Shown piece after piece: positions 1,941 through 8,133 of a DNA stretch of 12,156 bases. The notes under the pieces were generated by a model that saw only the letters and a program-made list of their open reading frames with translations, was not told the origin of the DNA and made no database searches. Where the stretch lies: the IMG/VR virus record IMGVR_UViG_2663763227_000007; one strand, written 5' to 3'. Numbering within the stretch: the first letter of the stretch is position 1; every line of letters begins with the position of its first letter. This stretch comes from a virus (lineage: Duplodnaviria; Heunggongvirae; Uroviricota; Caudoviricetes). Made by a program: the position numbers and the translations under genes.

Positions 1941-2606
1941 ATGACACAGACTGAATCAGCGATTCTGGCGCATGCCCGGCGGTGTGCGCCTGCGGAGTCG
2001 TGCGGCTTCGTGATAAGCACGCCGGAGGGGGAGCGGTATATCCCTTGTGTGAATATTTCCGCGGAGCCGGAGGCGTATTTTCGTATCGCACCGGAAGACT
2101 GGCTGCGGGCAGAGATGCAGGGGGAGATTGTGGCGCTGGTCCACAGTCATCCCGGTGGTCTGCCCTGGCTGAGCGAGGCGGACCGGCGGCTGCAGATAAA
2201 GAGTGCCCTGCCCTGGTGGTTGGTCTGCCGGGGTGACATTCACAAATTCCGCTGTGTGCCACATCTGACAGGACGGCGCTTTGAGCACGGGGTGACGGAC
2301 TGTTACACGCTGTTCCGGGATGCTTATCATCTGGCGGTCACCGGCTTTTACCGGGTGCCCCTGTCCTCTGCACAGGCGGGCGATATTCTGCTGTGCTGCT
2401 TTGGTGCTTCGGTACCGAACCATGCCGCCATTTACTGCGGCAACGGTGAGCTGCTTCACCATCTGCCTGAACAACTGAGTAAACGGGAGAGGTATTCCGA
2501 AAAATGGCAACGACGAACGCATTCTGTCTGGCGTCACCGCCACTGGCACGCATCCGCCTTTACGGGGATTTACAACGATTTGGCCGCCGCCTCAGCCTGT
2601 ATGTGA
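1941..2606 (+). CDS. K: Tail tip assembly protein K (lambda gpK-like); JAB/MPN metalloprotease plus NlpC/P60-like domain
   Basis: ATG at 1941 inside the longer ORF-track frame 1680..2606; N-terminus MTQTESAILAHARR as in lambda K. JAMM motif visible (HSHP-x7-S-x2-D in VALVHSHPGGLPWLSEAD); NlpC/P60-type Cys context (DCYTLFRDAY). 3' end overlaps I by 103 nt in another frame, as in lambda. Confidence 0.9.
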   Translation: MTQTESAILAHARRCAPAESCGFVISTPEGERYIPCVNISAEPEAYFRIAPEDWLRAEMQGEIVALVHSHPGGLPWLSEADRRLQIKSALPWWLVCRGDIHKFRCVPHLTGRRFEHGVTDCYTLFRDAYHLAVTGFYRVPLSSAQAGDILLCCFGASVPNHAAIYCGNGELLHHLPEQLSKRERYSEKWQRRTHSVWRHRHWHASAFTGIYNDLAAASACM

Positions 2607-3184
2607 ACACGGCAGCGGAAGCCATTCGCGCCCTGTCGATGCAGATGCCGGGCTTTCGCCGTCAGATGAACGAAGGCTGGTACCAGATACGTATTGCCGG
2701 TGATGACACGGCACCGGAGGCGGTGTACGCCCGTCTTCACGAACAGCTGGGTGAGGGAACGGTCATCCACATTGTGCCGCGACTGGCCGGGGCCGGAAAG
2801 GGTGGACTGCAGATTGTGCTGGGGGCGGCAGCCATCGTGGGCTCTTTCTTCACGGCCGGTGCCTCGATGGTGTTATGGGGTACAGCCCTGAGTGCCGGCG
2901 GTTTTTCTGCCACCACGATGCTGTTTTCACTGGGGGCCAGCATGATACTGGGCGGTGTGGCCCAGATGCTGGCCCCGAAGGCAAAAACACCGGATTACCG
3001 CGCAACGGATAACGGCAGACAGAACACGTACTTTTCCTCACTGGATAACATGATTGCCCAGGGGAACCCGATGCCGGTGCCTTACGGGGAAATGCTGGTT
3101 GGCTCCCGCCGTATATCCCAGGACATCAGCACCCGTGATGAAGGCGGGGGCGGAAAGGTCGTGGTTATCGGGCGGCAGGGGTAA
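2504..3184 (+). CDS. I: Tail tip assembly protein I (lambda gpI-like), 226 aa
   Basis: 226-aa product with ...ICLYGDLQRFGRR...QNTYFSSLDNM...VVVIGR motifs matching lambda gpI as recalled. GAGAGG Shine-Dalgarno about 12 nt upstream. Hydrophobic Gly/Ala-rich central segment. Confidence 0.9.
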   Translation: MATTNAFCLASPPLARIRLYGDLQRFGRRLSLYVNTAAEAIRALSMQMPGFRRQMNEGWYQIRIAGDDTAPEAVYARLHEQLGEGTVIHIVPRLAGAGKGGLQIVLGAAAIVGSFFTAGASMVLWGTALSAGGFSATTMLFSLGASMILGGVAQMLAPKAKTPDYRATDNGRQNTYFSSLDNMIAQGNPMPVPYGEMLVGSRRISQDISTRDEGGGGKVVVIGRQG

Positions 3185-3230
3185 AAAGAATAAAAAAATC
3201 CCGCAGTGATCGCGGACAGGAACTGCGGGA
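3185..3230 (-). terminator. Intrinsic terminator on the minus strand (hairpin plus U7 tract)
   Basis: Inverted repeat tcccgcagt (3199-3207) / actgcggga (3222-3230), 9-bp stem with a 14-nt loop. Immediately followed on the minus strand by T7 (complement of A-run 3192-3198). Not T-rich on the + side, so oriented for leftward transcription. Confidence 0.5.
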
Positions 3231-3289
3231 GAGTTACGAAGATTAAGTGTAAGGAATTATTCTTATATCACGACAAAAAAATTAACGCA
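3190..3289 (-). ncRNA. Candidate ~100-nt small RNA (antisense moron between I and J), bounded by a sigma70-like promoter and the intrinsic terminator
   Basis: Minus-strand TTCACA - 16 bp - TATAAT promoter (plus coordinates 3322-3295) lies about 65 nt upstream of the 3199-3230 terminator hairpin. No ATG in the predicted transcript; a GTG is followed immediately by a stop. AT-rich insert not present in lambda (as recalled). Ends are approximate. Confidence 0.3.
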
Positions 3290-3294
3290 GAGAA

Positions 3295-3322
3295 ATTATA
3301 CGCGCCACAGTCAGTTTGTGAA
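3295..3322 (-). promoter_or_regulatory. Sigma70-like promoter on the minus strand (-35 TTCACA, 16-bp spacer, -10 TATAAT)
   Basis: Reverse complement of 3317-3322 is TTCACA (5/6 match to TTGACA); reverse complement of 3295-3300 is TATAAT (6/6); spacer 16 bp. Confidence 0.35.
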
Positions 3323-3393
3323 AATGTGAAGATATTCAGAATTTTTATGCCATTACCGGTTTTAACCAACAGGATTATCGGTGGGCATGAAAG

Positions 3394-3425
3394 AAAACCC
3401 CGGTATCTGCTGATACCGGGGTTTC
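3394..3425. terminator. Strong near-perfect hairpin (13-bp stem, 4-nt loop) with T-rich flanks on both strands; bidirectional terminator-like
   Basis: aaaccccggtatc (3395-3407) / tgct loop / gataccggggttt (3412-3424). Followed by tttctgttt on the + strand; on the minus strand followed by ttttctttcat. Confidence 0.45.
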
Positions 3426-3527
3426 TGTTTAGCATGGCAGAAATGTGTTTCATGCTTTTCGGGCGAAGGATATCCGACTTCTGTACGGAATGGCAAGTGG
3501 CGGTTAATTTATTCAGGGGAAGGCTGT

Positions 3528-6500
3528 ATGGGAAAAGGTGGCGGTAAGGCACACACGCCTCGCGAGGCGAAGGATAATCTCAAATCCACGCAGATGATGA
3601 GTGTGATTGATGCGATTGGTGAGGGACCGATAGAAGGTCCGGTGAAGGGACTGCAGAGTATCCTGGTGAACAAAACCCCGCTGACGGACACGGACGGTAA
3701 TCCCGTGATACACGGTGTGACCGCGGTCTGGCGCGCCGGGGAGCAGGAGCAGACACCACCGGAAGGCTTTGAGTCCTCCGGAGCTGAAACCGGACTGGGC
3801 GTGGAAGTGACGAAGGCAAAACCGGTGACGCGCACCATTACGTCCGCGAACATTGACCGCCTGCGGGTTACCTTCGGGGTGCAGTCACTGGTGCAGACCA
3901 CGTCAAAGGGCGACCGTAATCCTTCCTCTGTCCGGATTTTGATTCAGTTACAGCGTAATGGTCGCTGGGTGACGGAAAAGGACGTCACCATTAACGGCAA
4001 GACCACCTCACAGTTCCTGGCCTCGGTGATTCTGGATAATCTGCCTCCCCGGCCCTTTAACATCCGGATGGTCCGGGAGACAGCGGACAGCACCACGGAC
4101 CAGCTGCAGAATAAGACGCTGTGGTCGTCATACACCGAAATCATCGATGTGAAACAGTGCTACCCGAACACGGCCATTGTGGGGCTGCAGGTGGATGCGG
4201 AGCAGTTCGGCGGCCAGCAGATGACGGTGAACTACCATATCCGCGGTCGCATCATTCAGGTGCCGTCAAACTATGACCCGGAAAAACGCACGTACAGCGG
4301 TATCTGGGACGGCAGCCTGAAACCGGCATACAGCAACAACCCGGCCTGGTGTCTGTGGGACATGCTGACTCACCCGCGCTACGGCATGGGAAAACGTCTG
4401 GGGGCGGCGGATGTGGACAAGTGGGCGCTGTATGCCATCGGGCAGTACTGCGACCAGACGGTCCCGGATGGTTTCGGGGGGACCGAGCTGCGGATGACCT
4501 TTAATGCGTACCTGGCACAACAGCGTAAGGCGTGGGACGTTCTCAGTAATTTCTGCTCTGCGATGCGCTGTATGCCGGTATGGAACGGTCAGACGCTGAC
4601 GTTCGTTCAGGACCGCCCGTCGGATGTGGTGTGGCCGTACACCAGCAGCGATGTGGTGGTGGATGATAACGGCGTGGGTTTCCGCTACAGCTTCAGTGCC
4701 CTGAAGGACCGGCACACGGCGGTGGAGGTGAATTACACCGACCCGCAGAACGGCTGGCAGACCTCCACGGAACTGGTGGAAGACCCGGAAGCCATACTGC
4801 GCTACGGACGCAACCTGCTGAAGATGGACGCGTTCGGCTGTACCAGCCGCGGTCAGGCCCACCGTGCCGGGCTGTGGGTGATAAAGACCGAACTGCTGGA
4901 AACGCAGACGGTGGATTTCACGCTCGGGTCACAGGGGCTGCGTCACACACCCGGTGACATCATTGAAATCTGTGATAACGACTATGCCGGGACCATGACC
5001 GGCGGACGTGTCCTGTCCATCGATGCCGCCAGCCGTACCCTGACGCTGGACCGGGAGGTGACACTGCCGGAGACCGGCACGGCCACTGTTAATCTGATTA
5101 ACGGCAGCGGTAAGCCGGCGAGCGTGGCCATCACCGCACACCCCGCGCCTGACCGGATACAGGTCAGCACCCTGCCGGATGGTGTGGAGACATACGGTGT
5201 GTGGGGACTCTCCCTGCCGTCACTGCGTCGTCGTCTGTTCCGCTGTGTCTCCATCCGGGAAAACACGGACGGCACCTTTGCCATCACGGCGGTGCAGCAC
5301 GTACCTGAAAAAGAAGCCATCGTGGATAACGGGGCCCGCTTTGAGCCGCAGTCAGGCACCCTGAACAGCGTTATCCCACCGGCAGTGCAGCACCTGACGG
5401 TGGAGGTGAGCGCAGCTGACGGCCAGTATCTGGCGCAGGCTAAATGGGACACGCCGCGGGTGGTGAAGGGCGTGCGCTTCAGTCTGCGCCTGACCAGTGG
5501 TAAGGGAACGGATGCCAGACTGGTGACCACCGCCATCACCGCAGACACGGAGCACCGTTTCAGCGGCCTGCCACTGGGGGAATACACCCTGACGGTCAGG
5601 GCGATTAACAGTTATGGCCAGCAGGGCGAATCGGCCACCACCACCTTCCGGATTAACGCGCCTGCAAAACCCGCCACCATTGAGCTGACGCCGGGGTATT
5701 TTCAGATAACGGCGGTACCGGTGCTGGCGGTGTATGACCCGACGGTGCAGTTTGAGTTCTGGTTTTCGGAAAAACGCATCACGAACACGGCACAGGTGGA
5801 AAAATCTGCCCGTTATCTGGGGACCGGCAGTCAGTGGACTGTCCAGGGCGATCGGATTAAGCCGGGGATGGATTTCTGGTTTTATGTGCGCAGTGTCAAC
5901 CTGGTGGGCAAGTCTGCATTTGTGGAAGCCAGCGGGCAGGCCAGCAATGATGCAAAAGGGTATCTGGAATTTTTCCGTGGTCTGATAGATGAGACGCTGC
6001 TGGGGCAGGCACTGAAAAAGCGCATTGATGCGTCAGCCCTGCGATCGGATGTCACTCAACTGGAAGAGAATATCGGACAACTGGAAGAAGACATCCGTCA
6101 GCGGATGGACACGGATATTGCGGAAGTGACCCGGAAAATCGGGGAGGCGGAAAACAGCCTCACGCAGCTGGTTGCGAAAAAGAATGAGGATCAGACGCTG
6201 GCCATCGCGCAGGTGAGTCAGAAAGTGGACCGTGTCAGCAGTGAAATCTCACAGACGGTCAGTCAGAGCAGTGAGGAAAATACCCGACAGATAGCACAGG
6301 TCCGCCAGTACGTGGACAAAAAGCAAAGTGAAATCAAGCAGACAGTCAGCCAGGGCCAGTCAGAAAACGCCCGGCAGATAGCACAGGTCCGTCAGTACGT
6401 GGATGAAAAAGGGAGTGAAATTGCCTCGACCACGGATAAAAAACTGGGTGACCAGGCCGTGACCATACAGCAAATCCAGCGGGTTCAGTCAGACACGCGC

Positions 6501-7328
6501 GATAATCTGAATGCCATGTATATGCTGAAGGTGCAGAAAACGAAGAAGGGTATTCCGTATGTGGCCGGGATTGGCGCGGGGATCGAGGATGTCGATGGTC
6601 AGACGCTGAGTAACATTCTGCTGCAGGCCGATCGCATTGCGATGATTACTCCGGAGAACGGTAACACCACGCCGTTATTTGTGGCGCAGGGGAATCAGCT
6701 GTTCATGAACGACGTGTTCCTGAAGCGACTGTTTGCGGTGAGCATCACGTCATCCGGCAATCCTCCGACGTTTTCCCTGACGCCGGATGGCAGGCTGACA
6801 GCCCGCAATGCGGATATCAGTGGAGCCATCACGGCGAATACCGGCACGCTCAATAATGTCACCATTAACGAGAACTGTGTCATCAGAGGGAAACTGTCTG
6901 CAAACCAGATTGAAGGCGATCTCGTTAAAACAGTGGGTAAGGCTTTCCCCCGTGACTCCCGTGCACCGGAGCGTTGGCCATCAGGAACCATTACCGTCAG
7001 GGTTTATGACGATCAGCCGTTTAACCGGCAGATTGTTATTCCGGCGGTGGCTTTCAGCGGTGCCAGACATGAGCGGGAGAACAGCGATACTTATTCGTCA
7101 TGCCGCCTGATAGTGAAGAAAAACGGTGCTGAAATTTATAACCGTACCGCGATGGATAATACGCTGGTTTACAGTGGTGTTATTGATATGCCTGCTGGTC
7201 GCGGCCACATGACGCTGGAGTTTTCTGTATCAGCATGGTGGGTAAATGGCTGGTATCCCACAGCAAGTATCAGCGATTTGCTGGTTGTTGTGATGAAGAA
7301 AGCCACTGCAGGCATCACGATTAGCTGA
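3528..7328 (+). CDS. J: Tail tip / host specificity protein J (lambda gpJ-like central tail fibre), 1266 aa
   Basis: N-terminus [22 protein letters not shown] and long collinear similarity to lambda J as recalled (e.g. [70 protein letters not shown]). GGGGAAGG Shine-Dalgarno upstream. About 134 aa longer than lambda J (1132 aa). Confidence 0.95.
6240..6425 (+). repeat. In-frame 87-bp tandem repeat (2 full copies plus a partial) inside J, encoding a 29-aa repeat
   Basis: Copies start at 6240, 6327 and 6414 (agtgaaatc...), period 87 bp and in frame. Encoded repeat SEI(S/K)[19 protein letters not shown]. Confidence 0.8.
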
Positions 7329-7345
7329 ATTTTATAACCCCAATA

Positions 7346-7371
7346 CGGGCGCCAGAAATGGCGCCTTTTTT
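7346..7371 (+). terminator. Rho-independent terminator downstream of J
   Basis: GGCGCC (7348-7353) / agaaat loop / GGCGCC (7360-7365), followed by ttttttatt. Confidence 0.7.
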
Positions 7372-7395: not shown

Positions 7396-7995
7396 ATGCG
7401 TAAATTATGTGCTGTTATTCTGTCCGCAGTAGTCTGGCTGGTTGCCGCTGGTACGCCAGCGAGCGCAGCAGAGCATCAGTCCACACTAAGCGCCGGGTAT
7501 CTTCAGACCCACACTGATATGCCAGGAAGCGATAATCTGAACGGGATTAACGTGAAATACCGTTATGAATTTACGGACACGCTGGGGCTGATTACGTCTT
7601 TCAGTTATGCCGACGCAGAAGATGAACAAAAAACGCATTACAGCGATACCCGCTGGCATGAAGATTCCGTGCGTAACCGCTGGTTCAGCGTAATGGCGGG
7701 GCCGTCTGTGCGCGTGAATGAATGGTTCAGCGCGTATGCGATGGCTGGTGTGGCTTACAGCCGTGTGTCGACTTTCTCCGGGGATTATCTCCGCGTAACT
7801 GACAACAAGGGGAAAACGCACGACGTGCTGACCGGAAGTGATGACGGTCGCCACAGCAATACCTCTCTGGCGTGGGGGGCTGGCGTGCAGTTTAACCCGA
7901 CCGAATCCGTGACCATTGACCTTGCTTATGAAGGTTCCGGTAGTGGCGACTGGCGAACGGATGCATTTATTGTTGGTATCGGATACCGTTTCTGA
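7396..7995 (+). CDS. lom: Lom-family outer membrane protein (Ail/Lom/PagC family beta-barrel), 199 aa
   Basis: N-terminal signal peptide (MRKLCAVILSAVVWLVAAGTPASAA). C-terminal AYEGSGSGDWRTDAFIVGIGYRF ends in aromatic F and matches the lambda Lom C-terminus as recalled; internal INVKYRYE and YAMAGVA motifs. GAGAGG Shine-Dalgarno; flanked by terminators (moron). Confidence 0.9.
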   Translation: MRKLCAVILSAVVWLVAAGTPASAAEHQSTLSAGYLQTHTDMPGSDNLNGINVKYRYEFTDTLGLITSFSYADAEDEQKTHYSDTRWHEDSVRNRWFSVMAGPSVRVNEWFSAYAMAGVAYSRVSTFSGDYLRVTDNKGKTHDVLTGSDDGRHSNTSLAWGAGVQFNPTESVTIDLAYEGSGSGDWRTDAFIVGIGYRF

Positions 7996-8098: not shown

Positions 8099-8133
8099 GA
8101 AGCCCGTGGCGTCACTGCTGCGGGCTTTTTTTA
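8099..8133 (+). terminator. Rho-independent terminator after lom
   Basis: agcccg (8101-8106) ... cgggct (8121-8126) stem followed by T7 run (8127-8133), just upstream of the stf start. Confidence 0.6.

Follow-up and report, generated by a model that had tools for sequence, protein, structure and literature searches.

Bidirectional intrinsic terminators of Escherichia coli, which were reportedly recognized by full-length RNA profiling, are said to have an A-run before and a U-run after the stem of a symmetric hairpin. They usually sit between convergent genes. In lambdoid phages, the moron concept, which is said to come from genome work on HK97 and HK022, denotes a gene that, together with a promoter and a terminator of its own, has been inserted between two late genes. 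A third described system is PasB (E2348CN_0006), a published Hfq-dependent sRNA of an EPEC prophage with a length of ~83 nt in strain E2348/69, where the homologues of I and J in prophage PP6 flank it and are both encoded on the opposite strand. In EPEC, PasB is reported to be more abundant in non-activating medium and lower in glucose-containing activating medium. The EPEC lysogens express PasB (base means of about 480–1080) and have almost no transcripts of the tail genes I and J (about 5–15). Here we describe a stem-loop located between genes I and J in a stretch of 12,156 nt, referred to as the window, which represents the tail end of the late operon of a lambdoid prophage.

A perfect 13-bp stem-loop in the I–J spacer

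The window contains L (1232–1930), K, the tail assembly gene I (2603–3184), the tail-tip (host specificity) gene J (3528–7328), lom (7396–7995) and a tail-fibre gene (8147–10210), all of them on the plus strand. Gene I was assigned by its Pfam match (Lambda_tail_I) and by the RefSeq annotation of a locus with a 100% identical spacer, and J by its Pfam J domains. Between the two genes lies a spacer of 343 nt (the ‘I-J insert’, 3185–3527) that is composed of two modules. The left module (3185–3348) shows 70–100% identity to many Stx and lambdoid phages; the right, J-proximal module (3349–3527, plus strand), which we call type A, forms one nearly invariant block of the hairpin and the leader up to the J start.

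The hairpin occupies positions 3395–3424 and is formed by the arms aaaccccggtatc (3395–3407) and gataccggggttt (3412–3424) with a 4-nt loop, tgct (3408–3411). The initial annotation had described it as a near-perfect 13-bp stem ending at 3394 and 3425; the hairpin is real and has this length, but the stem is perfect and its true ends lie one base further inside on either side. Six of the 13 pairs are G-C pairs, and the G+C-rich core reads CCCCGG..CCGGGG. When T residues are counted from where this core ends, the plus-strand tail TTTCTGTTT (3422–3430, including three T of the stem base) and the minus-strand tail TTTTCTTTC (complement of 3389–3397, read on the plus strand as the A-rich run GAAAGAAAA) each contain 7 T in 9 nt, in line with the T-rich tracts that had been noticed after the stem on both strands. 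Elsewhere, in phage and metagenome contigs, the commoner allele of the plus-strand tail is TTTCTCTTT.

The hairpin lies well past chance expectation. It is the longest perfect short-loop inverted repeat of the window, and 300 dinucleotide-preserving shuffles of the whole window never yielded a 13-bp stem and yielded a 12-bp stem only twice. The folding energy of the region as RNA is −27.5 kcal/mol for the plus strand (z = −7.7) and −24.0 kcal/mol for the minus strand (z = −6.6), and for neither strand did any of 200 shuffles equal this value. The stem had also been called unusually long for an intergenic terminator, which does not hold for the window itself, where the terminator-like hairpin at the lom/tail-fibre junction (8099–8128, plus strand) has 13 pairs as well. 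Another terminator-like hairpin is located at the J/lom junction (7347–7366, plus strand). Terminators thus punctuate three consecutive junctions of the distal late operon, namely before J, between J and lom and between lom and the fibre gene.

In the predicted plus-strand fold the helix of the hairpin extends to about 21 pairs with two bulges. Directly before it, a second and imperfect helix (3347–3392, plus strand) pairs ATGCC..ACCGGT with ATCGGT..GGCAT, and together with the hairpin it makes up a two-hairpin fold on this strand. The distance from the hairpin to the J start codon (3528) is 102–103 nt and that to the −35 element of the minus-strand sRNA promoter described below is 73 nt, which agrees with the distances of about 100 and 70 nt given by the initial annotation.

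We then evaluated both strands by a d’Aubenton-Carafa style terminator score that is taken from the G+C core and represents a relative measure only, because the old formula was fed with modern energy parameters. On this scale the hairpin reaches +22.3 on the plus strand and +32.9 on the minus strand, and the PasB terminator reaches +30.1. A simple terminator scan had missed the hairpin because it extended the stem into A-T pairs and so left too few T in the tail. The anatomy is that of an intrinsic terminator: a G+C-rich stem within the range of roughly 5–14 bp, a short loop and, on both strands, a U-rich tract immediately 3′ of the stem. The succession of GAAAGAAAA, stem and TTTCTGTTT, with a positive score on both strands, has in addition the shape of a bidirectional terminator, and the hairpin resembles those of E. 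coli in its G+C-rich stem, its short loop, the A-run before and the T-run after the stem and the two-strand score. It differs from them in its surroundings, as the flanking genes I and J are codirectional on the plus strand and no convergent units meet at the hairpin. None of the annotated minus-strand units has its end at the hairpin; on that strand the start of PasB is downstream of the hairpin, and a weak candidate promoter is all that we observed upstream of it. With respect to the plus strand the hairpin follows gene I, yet it is situated within the Q-dependent late operon, and a promoter scan found no plus-strand promoter near the hairpin that would need a stop.

Two open reading frames cross the spacer over the hairpin, 3206–3547 on the plus strand (113 codons) and 3268–3552 on the minus strand (94 codons). 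A coding role was rejected, as there was no Pfam match (66-aa ATG-started version) and no visible ribosome-binding site, and as the frames are absent from PasB loci with the other hairpin type (type B, below); we treated them as chance occurrences. A comparison with Rfam 15 gave no match at gathering thresholds in the whole window and only sub-threshold matches within 3100–3650, the best one with 26.8 bits against a gathering score of 48.

The neighbouring PasB gene and its control region

A candidate sRNA had been proposed on the minus strand of the spacer, and it turned out to be a published one: the Northern probe used for PasB of EPEC E2348/69, AATCCCGCAGTGATCGCGGAGCT, matches the window at 3198–3217, and the sRNA locus of the left module aligns throughout with the PasB locus of this strain. 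The PasB variant of the window (3192–3288, minus strand) has a predicted start near 3288 and a terminator hairpin at 3199–3230 that is followed by seven U, which gives a predicted transcript of ~97 nt compared to the 83 nt reported for E2348/69. Its promoter, TTCACA-16-TATAAT (3322..3295, minus strand), matches 11 of the 12 consensus positions and is conserved across PasB loci. The I–J hairpin is an immediate neighbour of PasB and not a part of it, as it lies upstream of the PasB promoter and outside the transcript.

Just upstream of the PasB −35 element, all PasB loci collected share a conserved block, AATGTGAAGAnnTTCAGAAnTTTTAT. By its likeness to the CRP consensus, we take this block to contain a putative CRP site. 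The CRP-like site, AAATGTGA-AGATAT-TCAGAATT (3322–3343, with the core TGTGA-N6-TCAGA at 3325–3340), is found between the PasB −35 element and the hairpin module, and the block is kept throughout the PasB loci collected, including those whose PasB body shows no more than about 70% identity. The centre of the site is at about −44.5 from the predicted PasB start, which is an unusual spacing. The lower PasB level of EPEC in glucose-containing activating medium would fit a control by cAMP-CRP. We rejected the alternative that an sRNA of the plus strand starts in the conserved block, since no acceptable plus-strand promoter was observed; in the searchable part of the EPEC supplementary text no Hfq-bound plus-strand RNA is given for the spacer. 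A CRP-like site for PasB accounts better for the block than the start of a plus-strand sRNA would.

Other described sRNAs were also compared with the locus. AgvB, AsxR and HnrS (EcOnc10–12) were rejected as the neighbouring sRNA, since none of them maps to the tail region: they are found at the PR′ moron site or at a distance of about 5 kb from this site. As judged from AgvB, the coordinates in Table S2 of Tree et al. (2014) lie about 137 nt below those of the current Sakai record. After correction by ~137 nt, the positions of the Hfq-CRAC peaks EcOnc22, EcOnc23 and EcOnc24 (Hfq-dependent, about 85 nt) coincide with PasB homologues in Sp15, Sp14 and Sp11, to which the peaks probably correspond, a link that is unstated in the papers examined. 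The same shift led us to reject an assignment of these three peaks to the analogous hairpins of Sp15, Sp14 and Sp11.

Distribution of the module and pre-J hairpins of other phages

Of 5426 complete E. coli genomes, 1446 (about 27%) carry the type A module (3349–3527), always with at least 95% and mostly with at least 99% identity. E. coli 55989 is one of the strains that have it. Carrier genomes have it in prophage-type loci at a median of 1 place and at most 4, and a REP/BIME-like dispersed repeat or mobile element was rejected on the basis of this median. The hairpin module is found in 1445 of the 1662 E. coli genomes with PasB loci. Among representatives of species outside E. coli, the exact hairpin was observed in one E. 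albertii genome, and among phage records the module is restricted to PPompW-type and a few other prophages. The stem is identical in 86 of 91 phage-contig loci of this hairpin type. For metagenomes, at least 120 contigs were picked by their flanking anchors only, and among the matches listed 119 of 120 contigs have the identical stem; the lone variant weakens the bottom pair. Because the stem is almost invariant, the covariation test suggested at first is inapplicable to this hairpin and selection on its pairing cannot be shown directly.

Several loci have lost the hairpin or are interrupted close to it. In one phage contig it is cleanly deleted between short direct repeats, in one genome a deletion spans from I to the hairpin, and prophages that carry sodC have no pre-J hairpin of any kind. 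An IS3-family element (orfA, orfB) was observed in one phage contig ~20 nt upstream of the hairpin, where it splits the right module. From the clean deletion, the nearby insertion and the hairpin-less sodC prophages it follows that the hairpin is dispensable for the prophage. E. coli Sakai is without the hairpin of the window: Sp10 has sodC in the slot, Sp9 has another hairpin type, the tail region of Sp6 is disrupted and Sp13 is P2-like. In Sp10 sodC, on the minus strand, lies between J and a PasB remnant, in place of the PasB promoter and the pre-J hairpin; the PasB of this prophage might be made, if at all, only as the tail of a sodC transcript. The type A module is found in the nleA/nleH/nleF prophage of O157:H7 strain 86-24, and the corresponding Sakai Sp9 has a truncated L gene, no K and I and the other hairpin type. 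Since their hairpin types differ, the spacer must have been exchanged between close relatives, and the hairpin type in the nleA-carrying prophage varies among O157:H7 strains.

After the conserved PasB block only two kinds of sequence were found in the PasB loci collected, either the module of the window or a shorter module with an unrelated hairpin, CAGGCAYCC-TCCG-GGRTGCCTG-TTGTTTTT, which we call type B. Type B occurs in PP6 of E2348/69, in Stx1 and Stx2c phages and in Sakai Sp9, Sp11, Sp14 and Sp15. It takes the same slot, between the CRP-like block and J, and is likewise terminator-like on the plus strand, but it shows no sequence similarity to the hairpin of the window. Its stem has 9 bp and scores as a terminator on the plus strand only (+12 to +29, compared to −13 to −38 on the minus strand, which fails). 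Whereas the stem of the window is invariant, type B is variable: in 20 distinct sequences 98.9% of the cells are paired, the T-run is essentially invariant and one pair shows a compensatory change, from C-G to U-A through U-G intermediates. In type B loci the hairpin and the adjacent conserved block are the most conserved parts, and both flanks occur in several alternative versions.

Hairpins before J are not limited to PasB loci. In its I–J spacer of 60 nt, phage lambda carries GAAACCGCC-TGCG-GGCGGTTT-TGTCATTT (lambda 15459–15494, with the hairpin at about 15463–15482), and close relatives vary only in the loop (TGCG or TCCG). In HK022, GCCACC-TTCG-GGTGGC-T7 is located 12 nt before J, after two annotated morons, and Serratia phage Bonzee has GCCCC-TATCCT-GGGGC-T7 before J. 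The lambda hairpin is unannotated in the RefSeq record and so is that of HK022 in its record. In a literature search that covered little of the older lambda work, no description of a lambda terminator between I and J was found. Phage phi80 and one Erwinia phage have neither a spacer nor a hairpin before J. The hairpin of the window shares with those of lambda, HK022-like phages and Bonzee the position before J, a G+C-rich stem, a loop of 4–6 nt and a T-run on the late strand. In contrast to them it has an unrelated sequence, a stem of 13 bp instead of 6–9 bp and a distance of 103 nt from J instead of 12–25 nt, it follows an inserted sRNA gene, and it alone scores on the minus strand.

For a broader view we defined a pre-J class, to which the hairpin of the window belongs, as hairpins that score as terminators on the late-operon strand and lie no more than about 140 nt before J, and sampled phage contigs via three J types, with loci not de-duplicated by contig. 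A plus-strand hairpin of this class was found at 73 of 80 loci with a lambda-like J, at 78 of 80 with an HK022-like J and at 186 of 196 with a J like that of the window. Minus-strand positives numbered 0, 0 and 86, respectively, and essentially all of these 86 have the hairpin type of the window, which is the only type with a positive minus-strand score among the pre-J hairpins examined.

The I–J junction is also a site of cargo: PasB in the window, the minus-strand sodC in Sakai Sp10 and, in HK022, gp22 and srb, at a site for which ‘moron gene product’ is annotated. In this respect, and in the terminators that border the cargo, it resembles the junctions of lambdoid morons. The hairpin is not the cargo's own terminator, however, as PasB ends at 3199–3230, and hairpins of this kind are found in cargo-less phages as well. 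The initial annotation had rightly placed the hairpin inside the I–J insert; within the insert it is to be assigned to the J-proximal side and not to the sRNA cassette, since PasB-less lambda and HK022-like phages carry a plus-strand terminator-type hairpin at this place. From these sequence comparisons, PasB looks like cargo that was inserted upstream of a pre-existing kind of pre-J terminator.

Proposed function and alternative explanations

We propose, with a probability of about 0.6, that the hairpin is an intrinsic (Rho-independent) terminator and represents this prophage's version of a recurrent pre-J terminator of lambda-like phages. The sequence anatomy, the scores on both strands and the positional analogues all support the terminator-like, bidirectional character that had been suggested at first. 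The plus-strand hairpins at the next two junctions and the low level of I and J transcripts in EPEC lysogens that express PasB speak for the proposal as well. The late transcript of the plus strand would fold into the G+C-rich stem followed by UUUCUGUUU, and a polymerase without Q modification would be released at the hairpin before it reaches J, lom and the fibre genes. In the lysogen, rightward transcription that is stray or that starts in a moron could be the source of such polymerases, and so could transcripts running antisense through PasB. Q-modified polymerase would pass the hairpin during lytic growth, as we infer from established lambda biology. Because the element is symmetric, with an A-run before and a T-run after the stem, it should stop leftward transcription too, and transcripts coming out of the J region would end before the CRP-like site and promoter of PasB. 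The late-operon orientation is shared by the analogues and the plus strand is for this reason probably the primary one; the variant of the window alone may, in addition, insulate the antisense unit. Points against a terminator role are that no nearby plus-strand promoter in need of a stop was found, that prophages can do without the hairpin and that the polymerase of the surrounding operon is expected to ignore terminators.

This last point would be accounted for if the hairpin acted as RNA within the read-through late transcript, as a barrier to 3′-to-5′ exonucleases that stabilizes the tail-gene segment before it or as a processing site, either of which would set the level of the J message against that of the upstream genes, since under Q antitermination the hairpin is transcribed and is not a stop. 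Intercistronic stem-loops control segmental mRNA stability in other operons. RNase III needs a helix of about 20 bp or more, which the plus-strand helix of ~21 pairs with two bulges approaches, and the lambda hairpin extends in a similar way. An extended helix is absent in the HK022 type, however, and seemingly also in type B on reading its sequence. Moreover, a stability element needs no T-run, yet all of the unrelated pre-J hairpins keep one on the plus strand, and this retention argues for termination rather than for RNA stability alone. We therefore regard a role at the RNA level as unlikely.

Another explanation starts from the minus strand, where the terminator score exceeds that of the plus strand. 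There an unannotated sRNA of ~70 nt, in tandem with PasB and antisense to the J leader, could have its 3′ terminator in the hairpin and its weak promoter shortly before the J start. A candidate promoter, TTGCCA-18-TATCCT (3496..3467, minus strand), is present, and the putative RNA from about 3460 to 3390 would fold into a 5′ stem, a single-stranded linker and the hairpin with UUUUCUUUC behind it, a shape typical of sRNAs. In addition, only the hairpin type of the window is competent on the minus strand, and only this type has a long J spacer (102 nt) with room for a promoter. The candidate promoter, however, matches just 9 of 12 consensus positions with an 18-nt spacer, and such matches occur in the window at chance frequency (8 found compared to 10.0 expected). 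As the whole module is invariant, its conservation says nothing specific about this promoter. There is no matching Rfam family, and the minus-strand T-run is absent from the analogous hairpins of lambda, HK022 and the other PasB loci. A second sRNA thus appears quite improbable; if true, it would make the I–J spacer a two-sRNA locus in about a quarter of E. coli genomes.

It is also conceivable, though very unlikely in our view, that the palindrome acts as DNA, as a site for a dimeric protein or a linker for recombination of J cassettes, or that it is a hitch-hiking remnant of the donor of the module. The perfection of the palindrome, its tolerated loss from prophages and the type B loci, where the hairpin and its block are most conserved between alternative flanks as for a recombination linker, would be compatible with this. 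However, the element is not dispersed (median 1 place per carrier genome), one of the analogues has a compensatory pair, and the positional analogues differ in sequence but share structure and T-run polarity, so that structure and not sequence would be recognized. That unrelated stems share position, structure and T-run polarity argues for a structure-based function on the late-operon strand, and the conservation of T-run and polarity across them is more in keeping with termination than with recognition of a specific sequence. The terminator reading and its three rivals are not mutually exclusive.

Taken alone, the hairpin is a predicted terminator of an ordinary kind. In about 27% of complete E. 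coli genomes it forms the border of the PasB locus on the side of J, and it is relevant to work on PasB expression or deletion, as a strong predicted two-way stop lies 73 nt upstream of the PasB promoter. In a broader reading, the pre-J terminator, which is predicted even in lambda, could be a conserved checkpoint that meters or silences J expression. The finding of plus-strand hairpins with unrelated sequences before J in lambda, HK022-like phages and EHEC/EPEC prophages suggests a selected role within an antiterminated operon. This role, which appears unannotated so far, may be the silencing of J and the downstream cargo in lysogens or the setting of J dosage.
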